A stretch of DNA of 64,000 nucleotides from Massalongia carnosa (GCA_965645245.1 OZ287085.1:496001-560000); one strand, 5' to 3'. Positions 720 to 44,802 are shown, counted from the stretch's first letter. Made by a program: numbers and translations. The notes: generated by a model not told the origin, from the letters alone.

Positions 720-982
720 TGTTAGATGATGAGGCCACCATCATCATGGGCATCCATCATGAGCCTCGGGAGGTGCCTTGCAAAGTGCCTAAACAAGCAG
801 AGATGAGAGACAAGGTCTGACCGTCAGGGGACAAGGTCTGACCGTCAGGAGGACAAGGTCTGACCGTCAGGGGGACAAGGTCTGACCTCCTAGATGTGAC
901 CGTTTTGTGACTGCTATATAAAGCAGACAAATAGCCCACATAGATAATCACCTTCAATGACAATCATGCTACTATACCTACA
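720..982. mobile_element. LTR-like repeat containing about four copies of a 21-23-bp unit (GACAAGGTCTGACCGTCAG, 808-888)
   Basis: TG start; homologous in inverted orientation to 1865-2086 (shared GGCATCCATC and TGTGACTGCTATA...ATAGCCCACATAGATAAT blocks); right end approximate. Confidence 0.55.
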
Positions 983-1080
983 AAGTGAATTTATATTTCA
1001 TAAGGCGTTGTTGGGCTTGATGAGCATTGTGATGAGATAATGTTTCAGATATCTTCCTGATCGTATGATAATAGCTGTAC

Positions 1081-1864
1081 TCATATTACTTCTAGCTTTT
1101 CTTCAACTTTCACACGCTTGACGGAACCGAGCTCGCCGTATTGCCTGTGTTTTGTAATCTTGTATCTTCTTTTGAAAGAATCCAGCCATTCAATAGAGAA
1201 TCTGAAAGGTGATTGATTAACGGTACAGAGGCAATCGTTTCCAAATTTCAAGGCCATTTCTCTTAACAAATCGCCCGACAAAGGCGCTCTTTTGCGTTGA
1301 ATGCGCTGTTGCCACTCAAATAAGGCCGTTTCTAATTCAGGCCAATGTGCAATTCGAGTTTTCTTCAGATTCGGGCGTAGCAATGCGTGAGATGTATCCA
1401 GATAAGCCCATTTATGTGAGAGGATTTTGGAAACTTGTCCTTTGTCAATTTTATGACGGTAAAGATTATCAAACCAAACGACCAGTTTTTCGTATTTCTT
1501 GTCATCTCCAGATACAGCATGATCTTGATAACGCTGTCGTAATGCTCGTCGTTGATCGTCGGTAAAGGCGTCACGCTTTTTTCTGCTTCTCTCTCTGGGA
1601 GAAAGCGGGGATGTGGGACGTTTTCGAGGATTTCGAGATGGAGGAGATGAAGTCTCCGGATTTTGACTATTATCTCTCAAAGAAGTCTAAGGGAAAGTCA
1701 TATTTACTATAAGAAGTCACCGCAAAATTTTTAGAGAAAGTTAAGAAACTTTCTAATAGAGCGAGGTTTCTTATCCCTCATCAGAAAAAAACCAGTCTTT
1801 TCGTCCGAGTTTCTTACTAGCCGAGGTTTCTTAATCAGCAGTTTCTTATAACCGGATCTGACTG
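1081..1864 (-). mobile_element. 5' part of a pogo/Tigger-like DNA transposon (CENP-B/Tc5 HTH region)
   Basis: ORF 1081-1680 has WPELETALFEW, LSGDLLREMA and FSIEWLDSFKRRYKI; terminus TA|CAGTCAGATCC at 1864-1866 with repeated AAGAAAC subterminal motifs; catalytic part missing. Confidence 0.8.
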
Positions 1865-2086
1865 TAATTATCTATGTGGGCTATCTACCTGCTTTTATAG
1901 CAGTCACAAAAAGCAGCCACGTAACAATGATGCTGTAGGCCTCCCATAGCTGCCTGTAAGGCACCTCCATAACTGCCTATTAGGCACCTCTTATAGGTGC
2001 CTGGCAGGCACCCGTGGGACTCACGATGGATGCCTATACTGGTGGTAGTCTGATCATCTAACCGATGGTAGCCTCACCATTTAACA
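1865..2086. mobile_element. Truncated LTR-like repeat, diverged inverted relative of 720-982
   Basis: Ends ...ATTTAACA; reverse complement aligns with 720-950. Confidence 0.55.
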
Positions 2087-3063
2087 GGAACGTTTGAGGA
2101 ACGTAATTGAGGCGGTGAAACATTGAGGAGTTAGCAGTGGAGGTAAGTAGCGAAGCATTTAATCTGACAATCGAAATCTGACTTGCCGATTTAGCCTGAA
2201 ATGGCTTCTATCAGTTAATATGAATGTATATGATGTGATCTATGAGAAATGAATTGCATGAAAAGAGTTCAAGCGCTAATAGAATAACATCATGACTCGC
2301 ATGAGTGATGATAATGATGATTACGACGAAATGAGACAATGATCTGCTGAATGAGCTATGTACGAGAAGATTAGACAAGACCTTATCTCCACTTTAGCCT
2401 AAAATGAATCAACACCTTAACTTGTGAACGTGTCTGCCGTACAGCAGTATTCATGATCACAGTCATATGCATAAAACCATTAACTTGGGCGTATTCCACA
2501 CTGGAGTGCTGATACGCAATCCGATTTCTTTGAAGATATATACTTGCCGCCCCATGACGTTCTGAGCACTTGCGATAAAGTACATAAATCATCGCCAATC
2601 CTATCACAAGCGAGAGGCAGATTATCAAGCCTCAAAATACAGTAGATTCTGAACTGCTGCAACTGATGAATTCATAATACTGATTTCAATCAGGAGCAAG
2701 AGCGATGCTTTTCATCGAAGTTGCCAAAACATGTGCAGGAAAATCATAACTCCAAGCATTGTTGAGAAGCAGCATAAATTCCGCCTATCATGCAAAATGT
2801 GTCTAGTCTGGCTAGTCAAACATGGCTCGAGATACAGCAAAATCAGGTTCTGAACATTCAGCGGCTCGTTTCCGAAATGCTGCTTTCGAGCTGAAACATG
2901 CAATAGTGAACTATGCCGGGTAGAAGATAATCAATTTCGACTATGATTTCACTCGCTATGGCGGGCTTTATCATGATATCAAGACCAGCCGGTTATGAAT
3001 GACAACAGGCTTGCAGCGTTCAATGGACCCGGAGTTATCCTGAGCATGATCATGGGTGCTTAA

Positions 3064-3200
3064 TTGGTAGAGCTGGAGGCACAAGCTCAGCACGGGCGGA
3101 CAGCGTTAATATGGGCAGCGGAACTAGACCACGAAACGGTGGCGGAGATGTTGCTGGACAAGGGCGCGGAGACGAATGCTCAAGGGAGAAGGTTTGACGA
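3064..3200 (+). pseudogene. Ankyrin-repeat gene relic
   Basis: GRTALIWAAELDHETVAEMLLDKGAETNAQG is one canonical ankyrin repeat; no intact gene around it. Confidence 0.7.
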
Positions 3201-3440
3201 CTTCCTGCTATTTGGAACAGTTCGAGCACACTGCTTAGGCCTTTCTGCTACCGCGGGCGAGTTCAAAACCTAGGAGTAGTCGCGTGCGTCAGCGAGCTCG
3301 ATCGTTCTGTCACTCATGTTCTGAGCTTTCAGCTTTGGACAAAAAATAAAGTAGTATTCTTACGCTGCTTTGTTCACCAAACGCTCAAACAGTTAAGTTT
3401 TAAGAAGAATGGGATTCAGTTCTGATTTATATGAATCGCT

Positions 3441-6418
3441 TTAAGATTCCACTGTTAAACTCTCCTTCTGCCACTCATTGAGAGCCTCAAGCGAAGACTC
3501 TGTTTTAGGATGTTGAGGACCTAGTTTGTGTTTTCGTAGCAGAAAACATTCTTTTAGCAGTGAAAGAGCCTCATCATTGCGGCCTTGAGACTTCCACGTG
3601 AATGCAAGGTTGCTCATGCTGGTCAGCGTGGAAGGATGCTCCGTCCCTAGCACCCTCGCACTCGTCTCCATCACTTGCACCTCCAGCTCTTCGGCCTCCG
3701 TCCATCGTCCTTGAATCCCATACGTCGACGCAAGGTTGCTCATGCTGGTCAGCGTGGAAGGATGCTCCGTCCCTAGCACCCTCGCACTCGTCTCCACCAC
3801 TTGCACCTCCAGCTCTTCGGCCTCCGTCCATCGTCCTTGATTCGAATACGTCGACGCAAGGTTGCTCATGCTGGTCAGCGTGTCTGGATGCTCCGTCCCT
3901 AGCACCCTCGCACTCGTCTCCATCACTTGCACCAGCTCTTCGGCCTCCGTCCATCGTCCTTGATTCGAATACGTCGACAAAAGGTTTTTCATGCTGGTCA
4001 GCGTGGAAGGATGCTCCGTCCCTAGCACCCTCTTTCTCGTCTCCACCACTTGCACCCCCAGCTCTTCGGCCTCCGTCCATCGTCCTTGAATCCCATACGT
4101 CGACGCAAGGTTGCTCATGCTGGTCAGCGTGGAAGGATGCTCCGTCCCTAGCACCCTCGCACTCGTCTCCATCACTTGCACCCCCAGCTCTTCGGCCTCC
4201 GTCCATCGTCCTTGATTCGAATACGTCGACGCAAGGTTGCTCATGCTGAGCAGCGTGTTAGGATGCTCCGTCCCTAGCACCCTCTTTCTCGTCTTCATCA
4301 CTTGCACCCCCAGCTCTTCGGCCTCTGTCCATCGTCCTTGATTCGAATACGTCGACGCAAGGTTGCTCATGCTGCGCAGCGTGCTAGGATGCTCCGTCCC
4401 TAGCACCCTCGCACTCGTCTTTATCACTTGCACCTCCAGCTCTTCGGCCTCCGTCCATCGTCCTTGAATCCTGTACGTCGACACAAGGTTGCTTATGCTG
4501 GTCAGCGTGTCTGGATGCTCCATCCCTAGCACCCTCGCACTCGTCTCCATCACTTGCATCTGCAGCTCTTCTGCCTCCTTTCGTCGCCCTCCACCGCTGT
4601 ATGCTATGGCTAGCATAGCCATACTATCCAATGTCTTTTCATTTTCTAGACCTAGCACCTTTTGCCTGGTTCTTGTTGCTTTTAGGGCCATTGTCGCTGC
4701 TTCAGCGTAACTCCCTTTCGCGCACGCATACCACGCAGCGTGATATAGTATCAAGGCCCAATCTTGTAATGAGCTATCGACAGCTGGCTGCTGCGCTACT
4801 GCCGACTTTGCGTGAGGAAAAAGCGCTTGACACTTTGTCCAATTCTCGTAATCTCCCGTCGGAAATACTGTACTGAGATTCTTGATGAACTGCTGCTTCC
4901 ATCTTTCGAGCTGATTGGATGCTTCTAGCCACTTTCTGATGGCAAGCTGCACTAGCCCGTGCATCTCAAAGGTGGTTTCATTCATGCTGATGGTGATGAA
5001 CGAGTAGTTTCTCAAGACAAGTATGTCGGCTTCAAACTCGTCGACGCTGGAATCGGACACGGTATCCTCTTCGCTATCGTCTTCTTGGTCATCATCTTCG
5101 TCATCTCCAGCATTTTCTCCCGTATTTTCATTTCCTGCCTCATTTTGTGTCTTGAGTAAAGCCTCAGGAATTCCCTGTCGATCGAAAAAGCTCATAAGCG
5201 ACAGCAGATTAGCCGCCGAAGGCCTGATCTGATGAATATGATCAAATGAAATTTGCCAGGTTATAATAATTGAGTTTTTAGCCTCCAAGTCCCTTCGAAG
5301 ATGTCCCCCTTCTTGATTCAAGAGACTTGCTTTTCTTTTATCATTCTTATGGAACTCATCTACGTACTGTCGTACAGAATATCTTGGTACTCTTAGTCGA
5401 ATGTATGCAGCCGCTTGAACAATAGCAAGCGGCATAAATTCAAGTGCTACTGCTAGCTCAGAAGTATCTTCTCTATCGATCTGTTCTCCCAGTTTCTTTT
5501 CAAGGAGCGTTAGCGCATGTGTATGATTCATCGGCTCAATCGGTATTATGTCACTTTCTTCCACTAGCTGCAATGCCACACTTTTAGTCCGGGTGGTGAC
5601 GAGAATCGAGCCGTTTCGGCTCTGAGGTAGATATGCTAACAGTGATTGCGTGGGCCCGCTGCTAGATCCGCTGACCTGCGCCTTCTGGCCCGTGAGAAGA
5701 GTTTCGAAAAGCACAGTAGCTTCGTCGGCATTGTCGAGGACCAGAGCCCACTTTCCGTTCTTCTCGTCACGTAACCACTTGTCAACTAGCCGGAATATGT
5801 CCGCCTTTGGGTCCCCCCTGCCAGGAATCTTGACTTGCGCTGCAATCTCTCTGTAACCTTGCTCGATACGGGCTGCGTTGCTGGCGTGTATCCAGAAAAC
5901 CCACGTCGACGGCAACTGCTCTCTGATTTGATAGCAGTATTCGATGGCAAGCTGCGACTTTCTTTGCGAAAGTAAGCTATTAGAACTAGCCTGAGGCCCT
6001 TTGGCTTACCCAACGCCGCCTAGGCCGACAAGCGCTACCCTTGACGCTGGCGCGGAGCACTTTTCGTGGATCTGATCAAGTAGCTTTCCGTGATCGACGA
6101 AATCAGGGTCGCGGCGGAAAGGAACAGTAGATAATGGGCTTGGTGGGGTATCGGGTCTTTCTACAAACGCAGAATGCTATCAGCCTTGGCTCACAGAACG
6201 CTATATCATTGCGAATGCCGACTTGCCTGGATATTGAACAATATTGTTTATCTGAGAGCCTAATCAGGATTTAGCATAAGATCAATATCGATGTGAACAG
6301 GACCCAGACCAATCACTTTCGCATGGCCTGAGACGTCACCGACCACAACGCCTTGGTTGCCAGAAATGGTGCCAAAATCCTTCGCGCCTGTAGAGACTGC
6401 TAGCGTGCTACCGACCAT
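3441..6418 (-). CDS. Fungal NLR (STAND) protein of about 937 aa: short N-terminal putative amyloid signalling motif + NB-ARC + TPR repeats
   Basis: Spliced by eye: exons 6418-6310, 6259-6227, 6160-6010, 5961-3441 (intron 2 is GC-AG). Protein starts MVGSTLAVSTGAKDFGTISGNQGVVVGDVSGHAKVIGSQINNIVQYPERPDTPP; contains VPFRRDPDFV, P-loop GLGGVGKSQLA, Walker B LVLDNAD, ILVTTR, LEFMPLAI, MHGLV and kinesin-light-chain-type TPRs. Confidence 0.92.
3602..4590 (-). repeat. Array of near-identical 126-bp (42-aa) TPR-coding repeats
   Basis: Seven GRWTEAEEL...VLGTEHPxTLxSMSNLASTY units plus divergent flanking units; one unit lacks a codon (near 3931). Confidence 0.95.
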
Positions 6419-6758
6419 TGCTGCGTCAGAAGATTGTAGACATTAGAGCTCGGAGCTATATTGAATAAGACTGAAAACCATTATCTTTTACCGTGCTCAG
6501 GACCGCATCTAGGCTCGGTCGGAAACTCGACGCCCACGACTTTCCAAAAGCACTGTTCATCTCTAAGTATAAATATAGGCACGGACTCGCCGATGGAGGG
6601 CTCCCCGCCATCATGCGGGATAGATGGCTGATAGAACCAAGGCTATGCACGTGCTGAAGCGCCTGGTCTCTCCATGCAGGCGCTATCACAATTATCTCGC
6701 ATAAGTTATAGTGCTAAATTTGAAGCACGACCCTCTGTATTGCGATGACAACGCCAGC

Positions 6759-8025
6759 ATGGCCGAACAATACGGATTAGGCGACCCCCTCTTTGATTCT
6801 CCAGAGGCGAATATAGAGTACGCACCGGATGTCATTTCTCGTCCGGGTTGCTTTGTACTGACCAAACAGTATTGTCTTCGTCCACGGGCTCGGCGGCGAC
6901 AGAGTGAAAACGTGGACATGGGAGGGTCGAGATAGATCGCTGTTGTGGCCGCAAGATCTCTTACCTCAAGCCTGCCCAACAGCTCGCATCCTTTCCTTTG
7001 GGTACAATGCGGACTTTGCTCACTTCTATCCGTTTGTTGGACCGAAATTCATCCCGGAGCATTTGACTATTGATGATCACGCGACTGCAATGTTCCAGAG
7101 CCTAATCGGTCTCCGCGAGAAAACCAAAACTGTAGGAATCGGCGCACCCCTACCCTTTCCACCAGAAATATGCTAATAGGATGTCTATGTCCAGGCTGAA
7201 CGGCCGATTATTTTCGTCTCGCACAGCCTTGGCGGTCTCGTGTGCGCCAATGCGTTGTCAAGGCACAATGGTACCGACATGGCTAGCACTACCCTCGTAG
7301 AGAGAACGATTGGAGTCGTCTTCCTTGGAACGCCCTTTGAGGGATCGTCAAAAGCAAAATGGGGAAGCAGGGCTCTACAGATACTGGGCTGGATAAGCAC
7401 CACGCATAAGCAGGATATAAAGGATCTTGAAGAGCGTTCGGCAAAACTCATCAGCGTTAACGAAGCTTTCCAGAAATTCCTGAAAGCACGGGATCGTTCT
7501 GAATCAAGAAAGTTTGTGGAAGTAGCTTGTTTCTTTGAACAGTATGCTATTTATAAGGGAGGGACGAAGATGGGATTTATCGTGCCCAAGGAATCGGCTT
7601 GCCTGCCTGGTATCGATCCACAGTCGATCCAGGCGAACCATGTTGATATGTGCAAGTTTGAGGATGAAGACCGAGAGGGATACAAGAGAATTTCACAAAA
7701 GTTGGTTCAATGGATATCGGATCTTAATAGCCGATCCAAAGGGTCTGGAGAGGATCAACAGGTCTGACAACTCTTTCGCGCGCTTGAAATCAGCTGAAAC
7801 CCAACAGAAACACTCGGTTCGTATGGGCGATGTTAACTTTAGGGACAAAATCGATAACAATCGAGGTGTGATTATGGGTCATGCAAACAGTACGGCCACA
7901 GACGGGGTTAGGATAACTGGAAGTAATATCACTGTAAGGATCACCTATCCTTTTGATAGCGAAGTACAAGCTGATAGAACATAAAGAATACTTATCATGG
8001 CATTAACCCAAAAGACTCTGTGTAG
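6759..8025 (+). CDS. SesB-like alpha/beta-hydrolase of about 350 aa with a C-terminal putative amyloid motif; candidate NLR effector
   Basis: Exons 6759-6817, 6870-7131, 7195-7761, 7808-7933, 7987-8025 join in frame. Motifs DIVFVHGLGG, LWPQDLLP, ARILSFGYNAD, RPIIFVSHSLGGLV, VFLGTPFEGS, CFFE, ANHVDMCKF; C-terminus HSVRMGDVNFRDKIDNNRGVIMGHANSTATDGVRITGSNITNTYHG. The last intron is the least certain. Confidence 0.88.
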
Positions 8026-8689
8026 ACCGAGGATAGGAAATGGCGGAACTACTAGTCAACATGACGGAGTCATTCTAGGACATTATTCAGGAACATGAAA
8101 TTATCAATTGACATTTTGACGTCTTTCGAAACTATTTTTTTCTTGCGCAGTCACCAGCTTCGAGTGGAGATTGACTTCTTGTGAGACGTGAAGAGCGCGC
8201 ATGGCAAGAGTTACAGGCTTCAAATATGCCGCAGCTAGAGGGGGCCACTTCCTAGAGCATACTTATTCGTCTTATGTCCAATCTCTAAATACTACCTTTA
8301 CTTCCGTAAGCACTTCGGAACAAAATTCTGACAAGATCTTAAATCATTAATGAATGAATAAGCTTCTTACTTCATTAATCCACGTAGATGCATCACCGAG
8401 ATTTATAAAGACGTGCAGTCAATGCTTACGTCTGTCGAGCCTTTGATAAAGTAGGCTGAAATTAAAACTCGATAGAGCATCATAATCGACGACAAAACTA
8501 AAGCTGAGACGAGCAATTACAATACATCAAGTCCTGACATCTATTCCTATCATCATCATTATCTCAGGTCGGTACGTTGACAGTATTGAGGTTCCGCCTT
8601 AAGATTCCAAAGCGTTTGAGCGAGGACTGAGGTTGGCGGGAAAATCTTCACTGATCCAAGTTGATAATTGGCTTGCGATTCATGGAGAT

Positions 8690-8905
8690 GAAGTGCAAGC
8701 CGCATCATCTGAAGGTCATGACCAAGCATCGCAGCTACTGCTGAAGATAAGAGTCAACGTGAACGCTCAAGGTGCTGACGGCGTCATCTAATGATCATGA
8801 TCGAGTGATGCATATACTGCTCGACAAAGAGGCTAATCCCAACGCTCAATGTGATATGACAGCGCATTACAGGCTGCATCAGCTGAAGATCATGACAAAG
8901 TAATG
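8690..8905 (+). pseudogene. Degenerate ankyrin-repeat relic
   Basis: Frameshifted copies of QAASSEGHD, LLLDKEANPNAQ, VNAQG and ALQAASAEDHDKV. Confidence 0.6.
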
Positions 8906-9207: not shown

Positions 9208-11796
9208 TAGGGCTCCGAAAATTTCGCTCTTCTGACAAGATGACACGAAAAATTCATCACGTGCTGACATGGACCCTGAATTTTTGGAAATTAATTACCT
9301 AAGCACACATAACTTATACGACAATTAGTAGAATATCGGAGTACCTCGATTTACTAGGTAATTGCACTTATAATCAGGAATCTTTCTAATATCATCTATT
9401 ATGTCTCAACGAGGTGGACGTCAGAAAAATCACCTGGTAGATGAGAATTTCAAGGATATCATTACTGAGGGCTTAAAAAATCCTCAACATCAATGCATTC
9501 TTTGCGGTCATCAATCAACCAGAAATGATGCTAGGGGACAACAGCATCTAAATCAATGTGATGCCTATCAATAAGAGAAAGCTAGAAAACAGAAGGGTAT
9601 TCTCAGTAATGCCTCTATTCAACTGCCAATCACTACGTTGATTCGTCCTCTTAATCAAGCCCAAATTGCATCAGCACATCGAGCAGCTGCGATGTCTGTC
9701 TATATGACAAATCTGCTATTTAACCACTTCGAAAAACCGTACGTTATTGCTCATCATCAGGCACTTAATCCGGGCTATAAACCTCCTTATTCTGGCCTTG
9801 TTGCTGGCAAGCTGCTGGACGAAATCTATGGCATCGTTAAATCGAAAGTTATCAAGGAATTGAATGCTTCTAATTACCTGAACTTCTTCACTGACGAGAC
9901 AGCCAACATTCGAAAAGAACGTGTTATAAATCTCTGTTGTCATGTTCCCCCGTCCGCCACCTCCAATGGAGGAGGATTTCAATTGAAGCTGATGCTGGTG
10001 TTGCCGAGAAGATGAGTGCTGTCGTTCAAGCTCAATGGGTGATAAAAGGTTGTAGGGAAGCAACCAACGATCAGCTTTGGAGAATCAATTGCATTGCTAC
10101 TGATACGTGTGCAACCATAAAGGCTATTTGGACGGAGATAGCAAAATTTCCAGAGATGAAACACGTGTTTTTCGTTCCTTGCGACAGTCATGGTCTGCAA
10201 TTGCTGATGGGAGACATACTGAAATTTCCATTCTTTTCGGAGGTTATAGAAAAGACACAATTGATAGTAACCAGCTTCCGGGGGTCGAATAAGGAAATAT
10301 CCATTTTAAGGGGTTATCAAATGAAGGTATGCCAAATTCTTGAATTATTAAACTTTCTGACAACCAACCTTTCTGATGATCAAACTTCTAGGCCTATCAA
10401 CAACGTCGTTCATTGATTCTTAACGTTCTTACCAGATGGGGAACGACGATAGGCTTATTAAACTCAGTCCTCAGGAATCAGCAGGCCTTATTGGATTATT
10501 TTCAACAAAAGAATCCCGGCATTGATCAGGGAAGAAAGAATTCTTTGAGAAGCTTCGTCAATGACTTTTCTTTTTGGAAAAAGCTGACTATTGTCAAGAA
10601 AGTGATGGATCCCATACATCAGTTTCAATACATGTCCGAGGCCGAAGAGCATAAACTTTATACCATAGCTGTAACGGTTCGACCAAGCGTGGTGCGGACG
10701 GCAGGACCTACAGCAAACATAGCAGGAGACCCAGTTATAGTAGAATAGAGCTTGGTCTGCGGACTAAGTATTGTGCCTTTTGGTCGGGAAGGACAGGTGG
10801 CGCAATGGTAGAAATCTATTCACTATCTCGCTTCGTCACAATAGCCAACACCTGGAATAAGATTCGATCTCATCTATATTCAGTGGCTGCCAATGAAGAC
10901 GACGAGACGGATTTGAATCATATTGCTCAGGTGATTTGGGAAGACAGATATCTCAGTCAGATTACTGAGCTTCATGTGGTAGCAGCTCTTTTGCTTCCTC
11001 AGAATCATGCTATAAAGGTGATTGGCGTATCTACGGAGCCGACATTTGCTCCGCTAATGCATAGATTTTTCAATCAATATCTGACTAGTGCAGAGGCAGC
11101 TACTGCCATGAAGCAATGGCTCGCATTTCGCGATCAAGAAGATGGCTTTCATACAAGCTCCGAATGCTGGACGTATCAAATGGATCCGGAGCTGTTTTGG
11201 AAATTCAGCAGAAATTTTGCATCAACCTTAGCAGCTTAGCCAGAAAGGTGATGAAACTTCCTGGTAATTCGGTATTGGCCGAAAGAAGCTGGTCGGTAAT
11301 GAATCTGATCATGAATAAAACGCGCATGAGCTCGATAAGCGTAGATAAACTCATGTTTATCTACATGAATGAGCGTACCCTCAACCGACCTGGGGATATC
11401 AAAAAGAAGTTAAAATTTGCTGGCATCGACATTGACGAAAGCGATCTATGTGAAATGGAAGACAGATTGCTGCAGGATGAAATTGTCATTAAGGAGTCCT
11501 TGACGTCATCGAAACGTCCGGCCAGTCAAGAGATAGGAGGTGATTCAGCGAGATCATGGGTTGAATAAGTAGAAATACATACAATTAATTGTATGACGAT
11601 GACCGGCAAAATTACGTACTTTTTAAGTTTACTATTTGCTGACTTTTCCCCGCTTTTCCCCCTTTCCGCACCTCCCTACCCACCCCCTCCCCCCCTGTAA
11701 ATAATCCATGAAAGTTTCACTTATGAAGATAACAGTGAAAGTTTCGCCCGATCGGGTTAGGCAAACTTTCAGTGTTCTTTTCAAATCGGAGCCCTA
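9208..11796 (+). mobile_element. hAT DNA transposon, full length, with a disrupted transposase (about 9401-11568)
   Basis: TIR TAGGGCTCCGA...TCGGAGCCCTA; 8-bp TSD CTTGCGAT (9200-9207 and 11797-11804); BED-like CxxC, FTDET, CDSHGLQL, TRW and AERSWS motifs; stops and frameshifts. Confidence 0.93.
10670..10840 (+). mobile_element. Solo LTR (family A, 171 bp) inserted in the hAT transposase
   Basis: TGTAAC...GTCACA; 5-bp TSD ATAGC; same family as 17677, 18077, 18491 and 33103. Confidence 0.92.
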
Positions 11797-13498: not shown

Positions 13499-16400
13499 AA
13501 AAAAAGTATATTGCTGACCCTGAGCGCCGCATTGGTTCAAAAATCATCAAAGCGTCAGTTTCACCCGTGGTTGAGTTCTGGACACGCAAAAATACAAAAT
13601 CCCTCAGACATCAAAGAGCTTAGTAAACTCATTGATCGAAGGCACAAAGACCTTTCTTTTTGGCAATTATGCCTTCTTAAGGCACTAGATGAGATTGTGC
13701 GGCAGTTGCCTCTTATTATTTAACCGGCCTAAAGCCGGTTAAATCAAATTGGAATAACCCTGCGCTCAATTTGCTTCTAGTCAATTGGACCCTTGAAAAA
13801 GCCGAAGTGGAAATTCTCATCATGGCAAACAAGCATGTTAAGCAAACAGGTTTCTCTGTTGAGACATCAGAGTGGACTCTGGCTAAGGAGGGACTGTTTT
13901 TTCTTTGTCTATAAGAAAGGTCACAGATCCACATTCTTTCAGTCACTACTAAGTTTCTCGCCTTGTTCAATTGCTCCCCATTCTCCCATTATGTCTATCA
14001 TAGATACGTCACATTTTTTGGAGAAAGCCGAAAGATATTCGGCATGGGCAAGCTATACGAAGGGCATTCTGCTCAAGAACAACTGCGAAGGAGCCATTCT
14101 GGAGAATCAATCAGAAATCACCGCTGAAACCATCAAGGAAGGTTTAATACAAGCAGGCTTCGACGCCAAAGGTATTTCAGTCAGCATCTTGGTAAAAGAA
14201 CTGCGTGACTAGAAGAATAGACAGAAGGCCGAGATGACCAAGGCTATAGGAATCATTCACGGATTAGTTGCGGAGTGCCATTACAGCCTCATCGACAACA
14301 AGAATGCGGCAGAAAGGTGGAAAATCCTGAAGGATAGATTCCAAGATATAGCACCAATGAGCATCAGCGACATCATTCTGAAGGTTAGTTCCAAGAAGAT
14401 GACCGACTTCGAGACGACCAGTCTATACTGTGCATATTACGAAAGCGCTTTAAACAAGATTAAAGGAATACTGGACGACAAGGCCAAAGTGGATGTGCAT
14501 ACCGTGGAGTTTATGCTTAAGGGAATGATGCTGGGTAACACCAGACGTCTATTCCCCATTGATAGCCCAACTTCGACGAGATTGAGCATACGAAACCACA
14601 AACCTGTCGGAAGCAATGAAGACCATTATTGCTTATTATGTCAACATGAAAATCACCAAGGCACTTCATATCAGCACACCTGACTCAAGAGGTCGAGCCC
14701 CATCAGGGAACTGCACCTTCTCTTAATGTGTCAAGAGAAAGAACACTCGTCATTGGCTAGATACCTGTTTACAGAAGTTTCCACAGTTAAAAAGACATAG
14801 AAGTTCGCTCGAATCCGGAAGAGCAAAGAAACAAAAGACTACCTCGTTAGAAACGAAGGGCGGACTTATCTCATACTTCAACCAACATTCCAACGACCAT
14901 TGACACTCCAGATTTGAGGATGCAGTTGAGCAAAGTGGACGAGGACACCTATCATGGACTGGACGTCACTACCTGTCAAATCAAAACTCACTACATGGCA
15001 TGGAAGGCTTGGTCATCTCAACATAGCAACGTGTCGAAAATATCTGAAAACGCTAGACATAACGTACGATGACGATATCAACCACGGTTGGTTTTTCCAT
15101 GCATGCGAAATGGGAAAAGCCAAAAAGATATACAACCGAACACGGTAAGAGAAGGCCACAGAGCTCTTTCAAAAGATAAACTCTGACCTAGTGGGACTAA
15201 TCAAGCCATCAGGACTTCTTGAAGAACTTTACTTCTTCACTTTCACCTGTGATGCTAGCAGATACACTCATGTCTATACCGGACACAAGAAGAGTGAATG
15301 GTTTGATCACTTGTTGACATACTACAGCATGGCTCAAAACAAATCCGGAAAGGCTAAACTCATAAGCAGTTTTCGCACTGACTTCGGCACGGAGCTTCGC
15401 AGTCACAAGTCAGACGTTTGGTCCTTGGAACAAGGCATAACGTTTGAAACAGCTGCTCCATACTCAAGAGGAAAACGGAGTCGCGGAACGAATGGGAAGA
15501 ACCATCATGGACATGACAAGATGCAGTGTCATTGCCGGAGACATTCCAGACAACTTGTGGGCAGAAGTGGTTCTAGCCATGGTTCACACCAAGAACATCA
15601 GACCAACCAACGCCTTAGCAGGTAAAACCCCGTATGAGATCTTCGAGAAGAAGTCACCTAAGCTGGATCACCTGAGAATTCTCGGATCTACAGTCTATGC
15701 ATTAATTCACGAAAAAGAGCGAAAAGGAATAAACAGCAAGGCTGCTAAATTTTCTCCGAGGGCTCAGAAGGAATCCTGTGTGGATATGACAGAAGCACCA
15801 TCTATCGCGTCTTTATGGAAAAAGACTACAAGGTCATCAGGGTCATGGACTTACGAATTCATGAAGACGCCACATTCAAAGATGGGACCGATCTACCCAC
15901 GTACGACTCAACATATCATCAAGCAATGAACTCCAAATACGCAAACGAATGGAGTCAGTCTGGGTAATGGATGAGATCAAAAATCTGATGGAGAATAAAA
16001 TCTGGGATACATTACCTACCGAGTCCATGGAACCCGGACATATAGTCTTAAGTGGCAAATGAGTATTCAAGCTGAAACGGGACGTAAATGAAAAGATCGT
16101 TCGCTTTAAAGCCAGATGGGTTGTCAAAGGATATCTACAACAATACTGAGTAGATTTCGATCAAACCTTTGCATCTATGGTCAAACAATGGCTTTTCGCT
16201 TGCTATTCGCGTTAGCTGCTCATCACTATCTGCACATCGAGCGACTGGATATAGTGACAGTTTTTCTGAACGGTCTCATTATCAACTCATCTATGTCCAC
16301 ATGCCGAAAGGATATGACACAGCTGGCATGGTGTGTAGGTTGAACAAAGCCCTGTACGGTTTGAACAGTCTCCGCGTCTCTGGTATGAATGACTGTCAGC

Positions 16401-23308: not shown

Positions 23309-25987
23309 ATGGCTTTTGTCGGGGGCCCCTCCTCGCCACTTACCGACCTACGGACAAGTCCCTTGACTCCCGCCGGTGCGCTCAAGCGGCCCCACCCATC
23401 GCCGTCAGGCAGTATTGATAGCTCACCCTCTTCCTCCTCCCCTCCTGCCTTACCTGAAAAAAATGGAGGCGCGAAACGCCACCGCCGGCGCATATCAGAT
23501 TACGACAAGCTGGTTGAGGTGCTTAAATTTCTGAGCTCTCTAAATTGGTCGGTAAAAGATTTTTTATCAACACTTTGTAAGAATCGAGCCCGTCATAGTA
23601 TGCGAAAGGCGCAAGGCCAGCTCTTCGATTTTGTCTATGTCGATATTGTGCGGCAAGAAGACTTTTCAAGCCTCATTGGGCCTGGTAGAATATCCACTAT
23701 CCTTCGCAAGAGAGGATGGGTTTGGGCCGCGGATGTGCTTCGTGAAGAAATCAAAGCTTTGGCAGATCACGCAGCCTTTGGCCCTTTCCAGCCGCCCTCT
23801 GCGACAGTCGAGTTTGGGACCTTGGAGGCTATTAAACTTGCTGCATCTGCCGCCAAGCAGTTGGCGCCACGATGGCTTGAGCTAATTGATAGTGTTTGTC
23901 GCGAGGCTCGCCCGCAGGAACCTCTCGATGTGACGTTGAATTCTCCCAGCGGCCGGCACACCGTTTTATTGGCAATGCTTTGTCACAAATTGCGACCAAA
24001 TAAGGCGACCAATATTCAGTCCGTCTTAGGCCTTTATATTTATCAAGGTGGGGCGAGGCGGCGAGTTCTAGATACACTCTGTCATTTTGACCTGACGATG
24101 TCATATACTACCCTGCAGCGGCGCATGTTGTCCTTGATTAAGGAGGCCGAACGAAAGGTTCAGATGCTAGGACAAGGCTCAAACATGATCTTGACATACG
24201 ATAACTTTGACTTCGCAGAAGGTAAACGAGGAGAGCGCACGGGGGATAATAGAGACGTCAGATCAATCACTACCGCTCTAATTTTCCAGGGGCAAGGATT
24301 CGATGCCGGCGCTTTGAGGCAGGATATGTGGCGCCCCGCCACGCATCTTTTATCAGCTGAAAGAATTGCGCGAAAGCTGGAGACTGGTGATCTCGAGATG
24401 CAGGTGAGTTCAATACAGGACGAGGTGTATATACCGCGCTCAATCGCTAATGCACCGCGTACCTAGATTCGTCTTCATCATCTAGAGTCAGCGATTCGAG
24501 CGCTTTATGGCCCAGAGATCGGCGACGTTCAACTTCCTTGGTCGACTGCAATGCCCGTGCTGAATAAGATGAAAAAATACAAGACCAATTACATTCCTAT
24601 CAAACCAGTCATGAAGGATGAGAGCACAACATCTAATAATATTCAAATATTGGAGGATATATTTGTGCGACAGTTCAAGTTCAAGGAGGATGACTCGACG
24701 TTTGCGAGCGTCATTCGGCTTATCTATGGTGACCTCAAGACATGGTCGAGAATGCAATCTGTCAAGGAATTACGTCGTGGGATATCGGAGCAATCTTTCG
24801 ATCGGTTCGACTGGATTTTACCGGGATTAGGGTTATGGCATCTTCGCTTTAACATGCTGCAGCTTATTCATAAAATACATTGGGGAGAGGCCCAGCCGGT
24901 TGATCCTTCGACTCTTCAATATGCCGCCAATCGGTGGGGCCGCGCTCGTGTCGTGCAGCCGAACGATTTCCAGGCCTTAGAGGATCTGATCATTCAGAGC
25001 TATCAAGCTAGAATCGTTGGGACGTGGATTAGGTTTTTACGAAAGGATGGATATGCTCCGCAGCGAATCGAAGCAACTATTTCGTGGCTCACAGCGCAGA
25101 CTTGCGGGCAGGATGGCACCTGGATGAATATGTTGGGCAGGATATCTCGCAAACTTCACGCGGAATTACCCTCAACGTCAATAGATATGCTTCCTCCAAC
25201 GCTTGATCAACAATTTCAGAATCATCAGAACTTCTGTGATCACGTTGAATCGTATCTAACACTTCGATACGCAATCAAATATGCGGATATTGGACTACTT
25301 CGTCACGCATTGCGCCACGCAACGGTGATCTTTCAGGCAAGCGTAGCTGGCACCCCGAAATATGCGCAAGCTCTTCTATACACCCTTCATGCGATTGATT
25401 CTTCCGCAGCGACCATAAGGCTACAGGAAAGTATTTTAATGAATAGTCTTGTCAATTTACGCGGTGACGAAGAGTCGAGTTTTGAGACTGATCGGCTTTT
25501 AGAGATACTAAACAATAACCTCAAGACGTTCCAGCACGAGCGATCTTATTTTTCAAAGTATAGTGACACCTTGCTCGAGAACTGGGCACTCAACGGTCCA
25601 TATCTTATGAAGCTCAAAGAAATCGTTGAGTTTTACTTTGGAAGAGTCAACTCTTCAAGGCATCCAGCAAAATCGGCCGCAGAGGATGTGTGGGGCATGG
25701 CTACGGCACTAGCGCATAAATCACTCTGTAAAAGAAGCTATGATCGATTTTCAACTAATCCAACAGCTAATCTTTATGTTGAGGGATTGAAGAAACTTGG
25801 AGAAAATGTATTAAAATACAATCAGCAGTATCTTTCCGAAGAAATTTCAAAAGAAATTTCAACAGACGACCTTGAGGGTAAGTATGAAGCCGAGCCCGAT
25901 TTTGTCAATGAAACAAAGCAGGTCCCCGACAGCCCTGTCATTTCAATGGCCCGTCTCGAGATATCCGGCGGTATGTTTTTTGATTAA
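23309..25987 (+). CDS. DUF6589/Academ-type transposase, about 871 aa, apparently intact
   Basis: Phase-0 intron 24404-24466 (GTGAGT...GCTAAT...TAG) joins the two ORFs; motifs TYDNFDF, IYGDLKT, PGLGLWHLRFN, PKYAQ, NSLVN and FETDRLLE. Confidence 0.8.
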
Positions 25988-26046: not shown

Positions 26047-28222
26047 TCAGAGGTAGCGGACGGGGCACTTTCTTTCTTGTCTAGATCGTGTCGGAGGAAG
26101 GGCCATGGGTACATTCAGCGACAACGCTTCCATAGGATCTCGAGGCGCTTTTTTGGTCTTTGATGCCTTCATCGATGATTTAAGAGCATCAACATTGTCA
26201 ACAACGAGCGCCGCATCGGAGATATTGTGATTAGGCGCAGGATTCTCGCCCGATGGCTCCGTGCTCTCGCTTTCCTTCGAGACTTTCTTCTTGACCGCAT
26301 TTCGCTTTTTAAAAACCTTTCTCGACATATATCCTTGTTTGATCATCCAATTTTTCCTCCGTTCCTCAAATTCAATACTGGCGGAGTTGCATGTTAGGCT
26401 GGGTAATCGTTTTCTCTTTATGTCGTTGTGTCGTTTCCATTCCTCGAACATGTCTCCCTCGTCTAATCTCATTGCTTGACCCCGCTTTAAAATTTCTAAA
26501 AGCTCGGCGCCGTAGGGCCTAATACCAGTCCATGTGTTACCAATCCATCGCCGCATGGTGGGCTCGTCCACAATCTGATCCGCCCAAGTGGTCAAAGAAT
26601 TCAGTACCTCATCGGGCATTATCAATGATGGGAAGTATCGCATATGTGAATTTGGGAACTTTTCCTGCGCCTTGGCCACCCTCTATTCTCGAAGTTTAAG
26701 GGTGAACCAAGGCCGCCTAGACGAGTCACGCTCGGCCGTTCTATTTAACATCTCATTGGCGGCTGTTGATGTCTGAAAACTTGGATCGCAAATTGAACAG
26801 CAAGGTTGCGGCTTAACATAGGCCGACGTTGGATACACTTTATCATTGAAGAAATTCAAGCCAATACCTCGAACGCAACCATCTGAAGGCACATTGATTA
26901 TCTCCCAAAGACCCGGTAGCATATCTCGTCGCCGATCAGCATCCTTTTGATTGATGCGGCGTTTACTGGCCTTGGATTCAATCTCGATTCCCGCGTCATA
27001 TCCGTCCTGTTCGTCCATTTTTGATCCGCTTCTTGGACCCATGCACCAAGAAGGATGCAAAAGAGTAAAATGCGCCTGTCCTCGACCGCAACGCAAAGCA
27101 CGACCTAAACGTTGGTATAGCTTCGCCATTGACGAGGGTAGCAGCCATTGCGTAACTCTCATAACGTCTGGATTATCAATACCAAGCCCGTATGCATCCG
27201 TTGCGATCAGGATTCGAGGAAATTTACATTGATTCGAGGGCATTTCGAAGCGAGCCGCAATCCTTTCTTTGTCTTGGGTGGCCATGTCGGAAAAGAAAGG
27301 CGCGACCCAACTAGCAGCCTCAATTGGATAGGACAATTGATTCATCCATACTTTCATTAGCGCACACGCCTTTTTGATAGATGAAATTGAATCCATGAAG
27401 ATAATCGTTTTCGGAATATCAAAAGGACTCTCAGCCCGTGTTGGTAAAAGATGTTGAAGATCGATCATGCTGTTCATAGGCCGCTGTAGACTGCTTGTCT
27501 GTATGTATATCTTTGGACGATCAAGCGCTGTTTGAATAACAGTACTTTCGTTATCAAAGCCACAGCGATCTTTAACGCTCTCTAGGGTTCTTGGATCCAG
27601 CGTTGCAGACGCACCCAGAAAAGGAATACCATCTGGTAATCGTGTACGAAGCACACCGAGATTGAAGTATTCGGGCCGGAAATCTCGCCATTCGGATACA
27701 AGATGCATCTCATCAAGAGCTAAAAGACATAAATTCAAGAAGAAACTTGGATGCCTCAGAACCTCCTGATTAAACAGCTTTGACGTCGCTATCTCTGGGC
27801 TAGTAAAAACTATTCATATTAACGAGTAAGTTTTTATATTTATCTCAATCATAATTTGAATACACACCATGCGTATAATTGTTTTCACGAATTAACTTTA
27901 AATTAGAAGAATTATTACTATCACCGTCCAACACGAAAGGCTTGCATCCCTCGATAACGCTCAATTTCTTGCACTGTTGAGCTTCTAAGGTCTTGAGAGG
28001 CATGATAATTAAAGCGATCTTAAGACAAGAGAACATTAATGGCATAGCTTGAAAGATAATACTCTTTCCAAATCCAGTCTTGGCGATAAATATCAGATCC
28101 TTTTGATCTTGTGCTAAAGTCATGATAGCGTCAACTTGCTCATTCTTTGGATAAAAGCCGAATTTACTTAAAATCACGGTCGTCACCTGCTCGCAAGTTA
28201 TCGACGCTATAGGATTGTCCAT
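26047..28222 (-). pseudogene. RecQ-like SF2 helicase (about 705 codons) with Zn-binding and HRDC-like C-terminus; one internal stop
   Basis: Exons 28222-27868 and 27809-26047; AKTGFGKS, VFTSPE, DEMH, WRDFRPEY, SAT, ATDAYGLGID, QRLGRA, CC-x2-C; TAG at 26685-26683 within LRE*RVAKA (expected W). Confidence 0.88.
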
Positions 28223-29255
28223 TTCGATGTGTTCGCGAGCGATATTCGACGATTCGCGAGTTGGATTCTTAGCCCGCAAAACGCACATCAAGCAAGTTCA
28301 TCACATTCAACGATTTTAGGCATTCGAAAACAACGCTCGGAGGATCAGATTAATGATCAGAAGCGCCGACAATGAAAAACTGGAGCTAGTGACCCGTTGA
28401 GTCTGCTGTGGTGGTGTCGAAATTTCGAGTCAAAGTCGAGTCCTCGTCGCGAGATCGATATTGCGACTCAAGTTTGCATCGATATGTTATTAAAATATTG
28501 ATTAATCGATAGAATGTATATCAAAGCATCATTTCTATTATTACATAATTTATGAAATGTCGTTGCGCGTTGTTGATTCCGCCGTCAACTTGATTCTTGA
28601 TGATTTTTGAGGTTAAGCCAAAAATTTGTATGAGCGCGCACCAAAATAAGCCGGATCTGACAAAAATACAGAGTTTTGCGCTCAGACGTGCCGCCCGTAG
28701 CATGCGTAGTCAGCTAAAGGGCCGCTAACCCGAAGGGAATTAGCGACGCTAACCCGAAGGGGCTTAGCGAAAATAGGCTAACCCGGAGGGGCTTAGCCGG
28801 CTCATAGAGCCACGCACGTCTGAGGTACTGAGGCAACCCAGTATGGGATGAGTCAAGACCAGGGAGCATCGCGAGCAAATTATTTTGGGATTACTATCGC
28901 CCACAGTGGCGCCTTCCTGAAACTCTTTCCATTCCGCCGCCTTTCTTTTGGTCGATTCCCAATCGATCTTCTTCATCGCCTTTCTACACTTCTCTTCATT
29001 AGCAAAATGCCATCTCGTACTTCGCCACCATTCCATAAACTCCTCGCTCTTCTCGGCAAAATATGCGAAGCATCTGGTGGGTTTGCCCACAACTTGAAGA
29101 TCGTATATCTCTAAATCTATCATCTGCGAGCTGCTCATTGTTGCAAATAACGAGGATTGTATATATAGGAATGTATATATAGGATGTAGCTGTAGGAATG
29201 TAGCTGTGGGAATGTAACTTCATTGACTAGATTATGCTGCGATAAAGCATTTATA

Positions 29256-41939: not shown

Positions 41940-43277
41940 CAGTACTAGGCCAAAAGTCTGCGGCCCCGCACCCCACCACCATTTCAATCATTCTATTCAA
42001 TCAACAATCAACCACGTCACGATTGCTGAAATGTCTTGAAACTTTACATAATGATTACATACATACTAAACACGAATTCCCCCAAAAATTGATTTTAATT
42101 ATTTAGTATACCATCCTTCCGACGCTATATACGCTTTTATCCTCCTATTCATGCTCTCTATTAACCTCCTCATCATTTTCACATCTATCAACGTCTAGGC
42201 TTCTTCTAACGCTTTCCAAAGTACCTCACGAATACTTTCATCACTGCCGCTCACCAAATCTATGTTCGGGTTGACTTGATAGACGAGCTTTTTGAGCACA
42301 TACTAAACATGCTCGATAAGATTTAAATCAGGTGAATAGGGGGGCCAATCGATGACCTCTATGCCGTTCTCATTGAACCATTCCATCACCTTTTTAGCCT
42401 TATGTATAGGAGCGTTATCCTGCATGAAAATAAGGCCCGGTTGCCAAATTCCAAGCAGATTATCGTTCAATAATTCCATATATGAGTTCGCCGAGTACCC
42501 CATCTTCTTCGCAGCAAAATCACGAGCCAATTTGTAAAGATCTGACCTGTCATCTCCCCAAAAAGCTGACCAGACCATGACACAGACTCCTTTGCCTTTG
42601 GGGACAGTTTGTATCATCTCTTTATTCCATTTTTCTTTCGGCAATCTGAACACCCACTGACGCTGTTTTCCTGACCCCTTTTCCACCGAGCACTTATCTG
42701 ACCATATAAATCTTGACCACTGCTCAAAAGTCCTCTCACGCCGCAGCAAGCACCAATCCAATCGTTTCTTGGCCATCTCAGGCGTCAATAAAGGTCATTT
42801 TTTAGCCACCCAGTTGGTTAAACCATACAGTTTGAGTGCCCGATAAATAGTCGTACGACTGCAGCCAAGCCCCACTTCTAGTTTGATTTGTGCATAAGTG
42901 ATTCGTGGATTGATTCGTGCATGCTTGATGATATAACGTCGATCGCGTTCTGACAGCACTTCAGGCCGTCCAGAACGTAATTTAGACACGCTGTCGTTGC
43001 GAATTGAGTGCTTCTGAATGGTGCTCTGCACGAACGATTTAGTGAAATTAGGAGTCTTCCCAATCTCGGTCGGTATGTGCCCCAACGCCTGGGCCCCAAC
43101 AATCATACCACGTTGATATGGCGTCAATTCAGTGTTACGAGGCCGATTACCACTTCTGGAGGTCAAAGAAGCACGAAGCATGGTGAAATAATGAGGTGGA
43201 AGATGGGGGGTTGATGAGTTGAAAACGCGAAATCACGAAAATTACGGGTTGGGCCGCAGACTTTTGGCACCGGACTG
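41940..43277 (-). mobile_element. Tc1-like transposon (second copy of the 29256-30582 family) inserted just upstream of the Gypsy integrase zinc finger
   Basis: TA TSD, same TIRs, high similarity; splits RWY|IPPG. Confidence 0.95.
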
Positions 43278-44802
43278 TATATTCCCCCTGGTCTATTACG
43301 TGCTGAACTTTTGCGGCAGAATCATGATGATCCCAATGCGGGCCACTTTGGTTATTCCAGAACGTTCGAATTAATCCAGAGGAAATATTATTGGCCCGAA
43401 ATGGTAAAGGACATCAAGCATTATATGGAAACGTGTACTCGTTGTCATCAAGTCAAATCGTCCAGACATAAGCCCTTCGGATTATTAGAATCCCTACCCG
43501 TACCAAAAGGGCCTAGACAAAATTGGACGATGGACTTCATAACGGATCTGCCCCCGAGTCTCCGCCGTACCGTGGCATATGATGCGATTCTTGTCATGGT
43601 GGATCGGTATACCAAATATTCTCGATATATTCCCGCACGAAAGGACTGGAATGCTGAAATCATGGCTGACGTCCTAGTGGAAGAAATATTTACCAAATTC
43701 GGTATGCCAGTGTCTATTGTCTCGGATAGGGGTAGTTTATTCACCTCAAAGTACTAGTCTCATTTCTGTTATCATTTGAGAATTCGACCCAGTTACAGTA
43801 CAGTCTTTCATCCACAAACGGCTGGTCAAACCGAGAGACAAAATCAGACACTGGAACAATATCTACGATGCTACGCCAATTATCAACAGGATGACTGGAC
43901 TTACTGGTTACCCTTGGCAGAATTCGCTTATAATAATAGCTTACATAGTGTCATAAAAATGACCCCCTTCGAAGCTATATTTGGAGAAGCGCCCAAATGG
44001 GAAGATTAAATTCTGACTGAAAAGGGGTCCGAGATTCCTGCTGCACGCGTCCTGGCTACTGATATAATGGACAGAAGAAAACACCTGGAGAAATTATTAC
44101 AAACAGCTCCAAGTACCCAGGCTAAATATTATGATCAGAAACATATTCCCAAGACGTATAATATGGGTGATAAAGTCCTCCTGAACGCAAAAATTATTAA
44201 ATCCACTCGTCCGTCCAAAAAACTGGACTACAAATATTACGGGCCATACGAAATTGTCTCTCCTATAGGAAAACAGGCCTACAAACTCCAACTTTCTCCG
44301 TTATTGAAGGGTATTCATAATGTGTTCCATGTTTCCCTATTGGAACCTTATAGATATGACCCGAACAAAATATCTGAACCGCCTCTACCCATAGAAGTAG
44401 AAGGGGAAGAACAATGGGAGGTAGAACAGGTGCTGGATAGTAGAATTCACTATGGAAAACTCCAATATCTAGTGAAATGGATGGGATTTTCTGATACGGA
44501 TAATCAATATCCGGAAAAACCTTCCAGAACTCCTACGAGGAAGAAAAGAAAATCGAAGGCATGAACCATTTCCATTGGAGTCGAATGATCCAGGATTAGA
44601 CTGCTATCTACCACACCACAACCACCTTCTCTCACCCCTTCACCCCCTTTTCAATCCATCTAAATATCCTCCCCTGGAGGGGGTCCAACCTCTAATCCGG
44701 CCTAAAAGTGTCAAAAAATGATTAAATTAATTCGACACTAGATCTCCACCAAGAGATAAGCCACCGAGCAGCGGAAATTGACTGGAACCTACCCAAATTA
44801 GA

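Follow-up and report, generated by a model that had tools for sequence, protein, structure and literature searches.

Homologous terminal tails in a divergent NLR/SesB-like hydrolase gene pair point to an apparently undescribed family of fungal signalling motifs

Introduction

The divergent gene pair at positions 3441-8025 of a 64,000-nucleotide stretch of the Massalongia carnosa assembly (GCA_965645245.1, OZ287085.1:496001-560000; the window hereafter) raises the question of whether its two products, a NOD-like receptor (NLR) and a SesB-like hydrolase, constitute a receptor and an effector coupled by an amyloid-type signalling motif, and of whether that motif belongs to any of the families already described. 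An initial annotation of the window had proposed such a unit from the resemblance between the N-terminus of the NLR and the hydrolase's C-terminus, and had suggested that the motif might be new. SesB-like lipases with PP or sigma tails have been described beside NLRs (PMC3321046, PMC5485727, PMC7885112), and five fungal motif families were recognised as of 2025 (HRAM, sigma, PP and PUASM 1-2; PMC12261475). The analysis presented here indicates that the locus probably is a real NLR-to-lipase amyloid-signalling pair, using a motif from an apparently undescribed family.

An adjacent receptor and hydrolase share a homologous tail

Independent gene models placed the start codon of the NLR at 6418 on the minus strand and that of the hydrolase at 6759 on the plus strand, reproducing the arrangement first reported, with 340 bases (6419-6758) between both ATGs as a shared intergenic region and putative divergent promoter. 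The models also returned, letter for letter, both tail peptides that had been quoted in the initial annotation. All the sequence-level features of a receptor/effector pair were observed at this locus: the genes are adjacent, the motif occupies the N-terminus of an NLR that has no effector domain as well as the effector's C-terminus, and its two copies are homologous.

The pattern N-x-G-[VIL]-[VILM]-[VILM]-G occurs twice in the six frames of the 64 kb, exactly at the NLR and hydrolase tails, with V-V-V-G as core residues in one tail and V-I-M-G in the other. An effector profile hidden Markov model (HMM), built from the C-terminal tails of 44 hydrolases from other fungi and excluding the window's own copy, was run against the 2648 six-frame open reading frames (ORFs) of the window. 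It recovered hydrolase exon 4 (E 4e-21) and, in second place, NLR exon 1 (E 0.007), with all other ORFs at E>=0.23. Alignment of the effector-side and NLR-side (nine copies) profiles with hhalign yielded a probability of 88% and a P of 2.9e-6 over 27 columns. These comparisons confirm, at the level of sequence, that the match between the two tails is real and beyond chance, and together with the gene architecture and the conservation described below they support the amyloid-type receptor/effector unit that had been proposed. Of the two blocks in which the resemblance was originally expressed, the core block stands, being unique in six frames and supported by the profiles; the second (KVIGSQINN on the NLR side, RITGSNITN on the hydrolase side) falls, in the NLR, within a predicted exon 2 that brings no gain in score. 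No second NLR and no further copy of the motif were detected elsewhere in the 64-kb window.

The tail is conserved in hydrolases and first-exon ORFs of other fungi

A search with the hydrolase relative P0011 returned 132 relatives at E<=1e-5, and the family counts given here derive from the best 120 of these 132, of which 78 are at least 270 aa long; shorter proteins were dropped as fragments. The effector-side motif was identified with a loose pattern in at least 44 of the 78 full-length relatives, and by eye in 11 more, in which it is displaced or more divergent. Besides these 11, the 34 relatives without a pattern match include 12 models or ORFs lacking the motif exon, which stop where hydrolase intron 3 lies, no more than 34 residues past the last helix of the hydrolase; two with PP-like tails; one with a sigma tail; and eight with other or unalignable ends. 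Named carriers of the motif belong to the Dothideomycetes, Eurotiomycetes and Sordariomycetes.

The 44 aligned tails outline a unit of about 47 columns (about 45 aa), made of three glycine-bounded segments. On the hydrolase side, these read phi-x-phi-G-[DN]-V-x-[YF] (where phi denotes a hydrophobic residue), I-x-N-N-x-G-V-V-x-G-[HN] and [RK]-I-x-G-S, the latter followed further on by N-x-Y-G. The motif recognised initially is hence shared as claimed, and the conserved unit is far longer than its two blocks. At the position of the PP/RHIM glutamine, the 44 effector copies present V in 27 cases, I in eight, Q in four, M and L in two each, and A in one, and 4 of 45 effector-side copies, with the window counted, contain the string G-V-Q-[ATV]-G with N or H as the next residue. 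The absence of a central glutamine, a trait on which the claim of novelty had leaned, thus holds for both window copies and for all nine NLR-side copies, but not for these four effectors. The spacing of the core is that of the G-phi-Q-phi-G of RHIM and BASS3, but usually with V or I in place of Q. The four G-V-Q-[ATV]-G relatives, together with one BASS3 copy presenting V at this place, tie the family to the RHIM/BASS3/PP type, of which it is probably a hydrophobic-core cousin.

On the receptor side, a phmmer search with NLR exon 1 against 1.84 billion representatives yielded 10 matches at E<=1e-3, eight of which are homologous first-exon ORFs that carry the motif. All eight are short ORFs that keep the same start methionine, remain conserved up to residue 36, gain a glycine from the G|GT donor and diverge thereafter. 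The other two matches, P0015 and P0021, were dropped as long unrelated repeat proteins matching internally. NLR exon 1 had no match in the longer proteins of a word-index database, and the receptor-side relatives are accordingly known from first-exon ORFs only. In related DNA runs (X1-X4), the differences listed for NLR exon 1 (6310-6418) include A12T, V24A, V26I and H32Y, all of them residue-changing, with states that are also seen in P0013 and P0014.

A different type of tail was observed in three distant SesB-like hydrolases (P0125, P0132 and P0128), reading …I-N-I-L-G-x-x-V-N…I-x-I-Q-N-Q…; it matched none of the tested patterns and no Pfam family.

The tail does not conform to described motif families

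We compared 54 copies of the motif, nine from the NLR side (eight relatives and the window) and 45 from the effector side (44 relatives and the window), with the published definitions of known families. The PP consensus, FxGx(x)NxGLQLxGxNxGxL, describes a 17/18-aa pseudo-palindrome centred on a conserved Q (PMC3321046), with the G-phi-Q-phi-G core common to PP and RHIM (PMC7885112). A loose version of this pattern matched none of the nine NLR-side and none of the 45 effector-side copies, versus three of four PP-looking tails of SesB-like controls; the strict version matched no control, so only the loose one is informative. The Pfam model for PP, PF17046 (PMC8086366, PMC12261475), had no match in the sequences scanned, among which there was no positive control for the model. 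The sigma motif consists of three repeats, GxGxQFNxx and/or GGTQNINT (PMC3321046), and none of the 54 copies presents it; both controls, P0126 and L016, match the sigma pattern and also PF17106 (NACHT_sigma, E 1e-7 and 9e-15). The PUASM consensus, FxGxGxQxxGxGxF, reported on PNP_UDP effectors and in NACHT NLRs (PMC9815663), was equally absent from all 54 copies, and the effector class differs.

The HRAM unit spans 21 aa, in which position 3 is N/Q/H, position 15 is R/K, position 19 is G, and positions 5, 8, 10, 16 and 18 are hydrophobic; the effector carries two such units (PMC4518210). In the tails analysed here only positions 8 and 18 of the five are hydrophobic and the effector has a single copy, and the Pfam HET-s models, for which no positive control was included, gave no match in the motif-bearing sequences scanned. 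The RHIM/BASS3 tetrad [IVL]-Q-[IVL]-G is missing from the window's two tails; when relaxed at its third place to admit A, T and C, it appears in 4 of 45 effector-side and 0 of 9 NLR-side copies, which denotes resemblance and probable kinship, not membership. Neither of the two motif exons matched a Pfam family at E<=10, and no family was placed on the tail of any motif-bearing protein scanned.

The readable supplements of a 2022 survey (PMC9815663) do not contain the motif strings, save for one unrelated 'GVVAG', and its readable tables do not contain six accessions of the hydrolase family. In Table S5 of that survey, for which 30 of 34 SesB-like (PF05057) rows were listed, the motif identifiers come from other effectors or from NLR N-termini and none has a PF05057 prefix; we read them as PP-type and sigma-type. 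NLR34, the sole unassigned Ascomycota-wide motif of the survey (PMC9815663), was considered and rejected, as it occurs on Fusarium NACHT and Tuber proteins with no effector matches. By patterns, Pfam models and the readable survey tables, the tail apparently lies outside all described families, and the suggestion that it had not been described before is upheld to that extent.

The locus shares features with several known systems. In the PNT1/HELLP/SBP PP cluster of Chaetomium globosum, as in the window, an effector-less NB-ARC/TPR NLR adjoins a SesB-like lipase (PMC7885112, PMC5485727); the short common tail is likewise located at the NLR N-terminus and at the lipase C-terminus, and its core also starts with N-x-G-phi. 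Unlike this cluster, the window presents no third, HeLo-like gene carrying the motif within its 64 kb. The window copies also differ from PP in lacking the central Gln and the pseudo-palindrome, in a G-to-G spacing that is one residue shorter, and in the length of the conserved unit, which is about 45 aa instead of 17-18 or about 20. At the sigma locus het-eN/sesA/sesB of Nectria haematococca, the C-terminal tail of SesB (about 40 aa) is homologous to the N-terminus of the neighbouring NLR, and the NLR-side copy was first overlooked owing to an unnoticed 5' intron (PMC3321046); the window has neither a sesA gene nor the sigma repeats.

The NWD2/HET-S pair operates on the same principle, with the NLR copy of HRAM templating the effector (PMC4518210). 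The distance from the conserved N to the glycine of 'V-I-G' is 16 residues in all nine NLR-side copies, as between HRAM positions 3 and 19. Automatic anchoring returned this spacing for seven of the nine, P0018 and P0019 fitting after re-anchoring on the second N, and in the ORFs of the relatives the glycine in question is G|GT read-through. In contrast with HRAM, the K/R residue is at position 16, not 15, the effector carries one copy, not two, and on the effector side the window copy and 43 of the 44 copies from relatives have a spacing of 20 instead of 16; furthermore, the effector is an enzyme and not a HeLo domain. RHIM in mammals and BASS3 in bacteria present, like the tails, a G-phi-x-phi-G core followed by D, N or H (PMC7885112, PMC8086366, PMC12261475), and one BASS3 instance reads R-G-V-V-V-G-D-H, with V at the place of Gln (PMC8086366 supplement). 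They differ in that V, I, M, L or A takes the place of Gln, the defining residue of the RHIM tetrad, in 40 of 44 aligned effector copies, in the window copy and in all nine NLR copies, and in that the long conserved flanks seen here have no counterpart there. Finally, PUASM is also a newly added fungal family with one enzymatic effector class, found via NLR/effector adjacency (PMC9815663), but it joins PNP_UDP effectors to NACHT NLRs instead of a SesB-like hydrolase to an NB-ARC/TPR NLR.

Gene models and domain organization

The spliced NLR model encodes 937 aa; its frame is open throughout, and both Walker motifs, A and B, are preserved. It has three introns, of 50 nt (GT-AG), 66 nt (GC-AG, donor GCAAGT) and 48 nt (GT-AG). 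Exon 1 (6418-6310, minus strand, as are all exons of this gene) has 36 codons plus one base and carries the receptor-side motif, V8 to K34, at 6317-6397. The predicted exon 2 (6259-6227, 33 nt, phase 1-1) carries the second block and needs the downstream GC-AG intron; skipping it likewise keeps the reading frame. Exon 3 (6160-6010) encodes a linker and the start of NB-ARC, and exon 4 (5961-3441), an open frame of 839 codons, encodes the remainder of NB-ARC, the DUF7779 region, the TPR_10/TPR_12 repeats and the stop. The 48-nt intron (5962-6009) interrupts the Walker A sequence G-L-G-G-V-G-K-S, which only the acceptor at 5961 restores; the sequence LVLDNAD is likewise present. The start of the gene must be upstream of exon 3, because the ORF of this exon has no Met ahead of the P-loop, and none is found between exon 1 and the P-loop. 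Intron 2 needs the GC donor GCAAGT because the GT located four bases downstream leads into a stop, whereas the GC keeps the frame.

Pfam searches with NLR exon 4 matched TPR_10 (E 3.7e-124), TPR_12 (E 5.8e-94) and DUF7779 (32.3 bits, cut-off 27). The NB-ARC match reached 19.7 bits, under the cut-off of 23.5, because the exon scanned is without the P-loop part. The restored Walker A, TPR_10 and DUF7779 place the protein among the NB-ARC/TPR fungal NLRs (STAND NTPases), and the roughly 60 residues ahead of its NB-ARC region had no Pfam match at E<=10, in agreement with the initial view that it has no N-terminal effector domain. Fungal NLRs often have highly conserved internal repeats, and the TPR array of this NLR fits that description: Tandem Repeats Finder identified at 3604-4578 (minus strand) a TPR-coding tandem array of 126-bp units, in 7.8 copies that are 91% alike. 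One of the 126-bp units is three bases shorter, with the frame kept. The intergenic region also contains, on the minus strand, an upstream ORF of five codons whose ATG is at 6443.

The hydrolase model, on the plus strand, encodes 350 aa in five exons separated by four GT-AG introns of 52, 63, 46 and 53 nt. Exons 1-3 (6759-6817, 6870-7131 and 7195-7761) encode the SesB-like alpha/beta-hydrolase domain, with an H-S-L-G-G nucleophile elbow and an A-N-H motif. Exon 4 (7808-7933) encodes the effector-side motif, and exon 5 (7987-8025) its end, N-T-Y-H-G-I-N-P, and the stop, with junction and tail being the same in the spliced relatives P0008 and P0011. Exon 3 alone matched DUF676 with 20.6 bits (cut-off 20.3). 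Across 31 relatives, G120, G121, E222 and H256 are invariant and H117 and S118 nearly so, and the source names of the relatives include 'SesB protein' and 'SesB-related regulatory protein'. This evidence assigns the protein to the SesB-like alpha/beta-hydrolase effectors (DUF676/PGAP1-type) and bears out its original identification.

The motif exon 4 has 12 homologues that are 78-96% identical. Three relatives of the complete hydrolase are continuous ORFs on Logan contigs of 1.3-1.8 kb, with junctions exactly as modelled and the motif present: P0005 (344 aa on a 1831-nt contig, 90.4% identical over 342 aligned residues), P0011 (81% identical) and P0027 (76%). The NCBI models P0008 and P0024-P0029 present the same junctions and the motif. 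Given that the same gene caller produced intron read-through fragments from other Logan contigs (P0006, P0007 and P0012), the continuous ORFs are inferred to come from spliced RNA. The exon structure of the hydrolase is hence confirmed, by homology, through spliced relatives that are up to 90% identical.

Retention of the 46-nt intron 3 (7762-7807, plus strand) results in a stop two codons on and in a protein without the motif. Twelve of the 34 pattern-less relatives (P0030, P0031, P0034, P0047, P0049, P0064, P0069, P0090, P0092, P0103, P0107 and P0114) end at this position. These ends point to frequent mis-annotation, and possibly also to real intron-3 retention giving a tail-less hydrolase. 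Just beyond the hydrolase stop, in a frame other than that of its last exon, the stretch 8040-8095 (plus strand) reads …D-G-V-I-L-G-H-Y-S-G-T-stop; it is the third-best effector-HMM match in the window (E 0.23, not significant) and may either have arisen by chance or represent the remnant of a duplicated motif exon.

The remaining window is rich in transposon-type sequence (1081-1686, 9895-11568, 15149-15929, 24467-25987, 26683-28297, 42303-44564 and 56252-59483), with fragments of the types Tc5/pogo HTH, hAT, integrases with chromodomain, DDE_3, reverse transcriptase with endonuclease, DUF6589 and split DEAD/helicase. About 170 bases beyond the NLR stop, on the opposite strand, a short ORF (3064-3273, plus strand) with one ankyrin repeat (Ank, E 1e-6) is probably a fragment.

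Partners of related hydrolases

Both sides of the motif co-occur in a related assembly, in which the NLR-exon ORFs P0013 and P0023 and the hydrolase-motif ORFs P0003 and P0004 map to equal-sized contigs (3,767,895 nt), a result that denotes co-occurrence and not adjacency. P0013 and P0023 are near-identical and P0003 and P0004 are different, and this relative may have the pair twice on a single contig. We also searched 80 metagenome loci around hydrolase relatives with both HMMs. The effector HMM detected the tail in L001, in L004 and, weakly, in L002. In L004 and L002, the hydrolase has a divergent upstream neighbour whose N-terminus bears a matching tail; the two genes of the pair lie at 7933-8865 (-) and 5649-7862 (-) in L004, and at 2263-3060 (-) and 892-2259 (-) in L002. 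The partners from both loci are homologues (E 4e-10) and have no Walker A and no Pfam family, which identifies them as proteins other than NLRs; a search of the ESM Atlas with the L004 partner returned only scores under 0.9.

Comparison of the three receptor-side and three effector-side tails from the window, L004 and L002 gave scores of 43, 65 and 32, respectively, for cognate pairs and of 18-28 off the diagonal, with the cognate score the highest in each row and column. This within-locus resemblance is as expected of templating partners, in a small sample of three loci where two of the partners are not NLRs. In the wider family the picture is mixed: effectors of the orthologue clade score higher on average than the others (37.8 vs 31.8, Mann-Whitney p 0.004), but do not head the ranking.

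Discussion

The evidence assembled here favours an amyloid-signalling pair with a motif of its own, and several observations weigh against that conclusion. Compared directly, the two tails are modestly similar (p about 0.003), and they differ by a four-residue indel in a loop, which is unusual for in-register templating, an objection softened by the effector P0074, which also has the short loop. Amyloid formation by the tails is predicted from precedents. On the NLR side, exon 2 and the GC-AG intron are predictions, and the profile score, 15.1 bits for exon 1 by itself, falls to 13.5 bits when exon 2 is added. The NLR-side HMM had no match at E<=1 in the 80 metagenome loci; the only two other loci with a visible partner, L004 and L002, present a non-NLR protein. 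In the clade comparison, the top four scorers come from other clades. Six neighbour accessions of three family members are absent from the rows listed of the 2022 NLR table (PMC9815663), a weak test. Regarding splicing, none of the four sequencing runs with sequence from the locus is recorded as RNA, and their contigs cross the introns without intron-sized joints, leaving splicing in this fungus as predicted. Moreover, in P0031 (297 aa, on a 980-nt transcript-like Logan contig) introns 1-2 are removed and intron 3 is retained, with loss of the motif. A complex prediction for the two motif exons, run without alignments, gave no verdict in either direction (score 0.02, mark 0.34).

Four alternative explanations account for parts of these data. 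The mechanism might be the same and the tail a divergent member of the known PP (RHIM-related) family, with no new motif family involved. The N-x-G-phi left half that the tail has in common with the PP consensus (PMC3321046), the PP/RHIM core (PMC7885112) preserved in the four glutamine-bearing effectors, the BASS3 instance in which V likewise stands for Q (PMC8086366 supplement) and the agreement with the PNT1/SBP architecture (PMC7885112, PMC5485727) would all be explained in this way. The loose PP pattern, however, failed on every copy while detecting most controls, the core is one residue short between its glycines, the right-hand G-x-N-x-G half is absent, and the conserved unit of about 45 aa contrasts with 17-18 for PP. 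PF17046 had no match, as noted above for a model without positive control, and the accessible survey tables contain neither a PF05057-prefixed motif in the SesB-like rows listed nor the six family accessions; we deem membership in PP unlikely. Slightly less likely still is that the tail is a conserved non-amyloid peptide with an interaction, localisation or regulatory role, such as beta-strand docking or membrane targeting. A cross-beta structure of the tails is proposed by analogy, the loop difference suits docking better than in-register stacking, and in L002 and L004 a protein other than an NLR bears the same tail family N-terminally. Against this, the tails are laid out as amyloid signalling motifs are, with short hydrophobic/polar strands bounded by G and with conservation of N, G and aromatic positions (PMC3321046, PMC4518210), and the combination of receptor N-terminus, effector C-terminus and adjacent genes is that of every validated fungal case.

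The two remaining explanations question the pair itself. A wrong 5' model or a decaying copy would mean that the NLR-side motif is not expressed within the NLR and that the pair is non-functional. This would fit the abundance of transposon fragments in the window and the three short 5' exons predicted for the NLR, of which one has a GC donor. Such a scenario is very unlikely in view of the 937-codon open frame with both Walker motifs, the want of a Met from exon 1 to the P-loop, the eight relatives that keep the start codon, the 36 codons and the donor position, and the intact hydrolase, 90% identical to a spliced relative. The resemblance of two G/N/V-rich stretches by chance is the most improbable of the four. 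Of 5000 composition-preserving shuffles, 13 attain the Smith-Waterman score of 43 obtained for the two tails; on the other side stand the profile-level matches, a core pattern found in six frames at these two places only, and two copies that occupy the expected termini and are both conserved in relatives.

If the locus is, as we think probable, an NLR-to-lipase pair with its own amyloid-type motif, its operation can be outlined from the PP, sigma and HET-s precedents. Upon ligand binding by the TPR array of the NLR, nucleotide-dependent oligomerisation of NB-ARC would gather several unstructured N-terminal tails, which could then fold into a beta-arch (amyloid-like) nucleus. This nucleus would template the homologous C-terminal tail of the neighbouring SesB-like serine hydrolase, and the hydrolase, probably a lipase acting in regulated cell death, would thereby be clustered and either switched on or relocated.

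A broader proposal, to which we give somewhat less than even chances, is that this tail represents a new, sixth family of amyloid-signalling motifs in fungi. The family would be restricted to SesB-like lipases, occur in at least three Pezizomycotina classes and form a RHIM-like beta-arch in which a hydrophobic residue replaces Gln; it would also couple the lipase to a non-NLR family, as seen in two loci. Under this proposal, the family would have escaped notice because its two copies are encoded by small terminal exons, which are passed over by gene callers, and because three 5' introns follow the receptor copy. If the 46-nt hydrolase intron is retained, this may furthermore act as a switch, yielding a lipase that cannot be templated.

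The finding is an extension of a known fungal signalling system and not a new kind of system. If true, it would add a further family, with dozens of members, to the catalogue of five fungal motif families, and would imply that surveys based on deposited gene models miss terminal micro-exons bearing such motifs. The natural series of Q-to-V/I replacements within the family could then be used to probe the role of the RHIM-type Gln ladder in templating and in seeding barriers. The non-NLR partner present in two loci hints, in addition, that receptors outside the NLR class may be coupled to effectors by amyloid templating.

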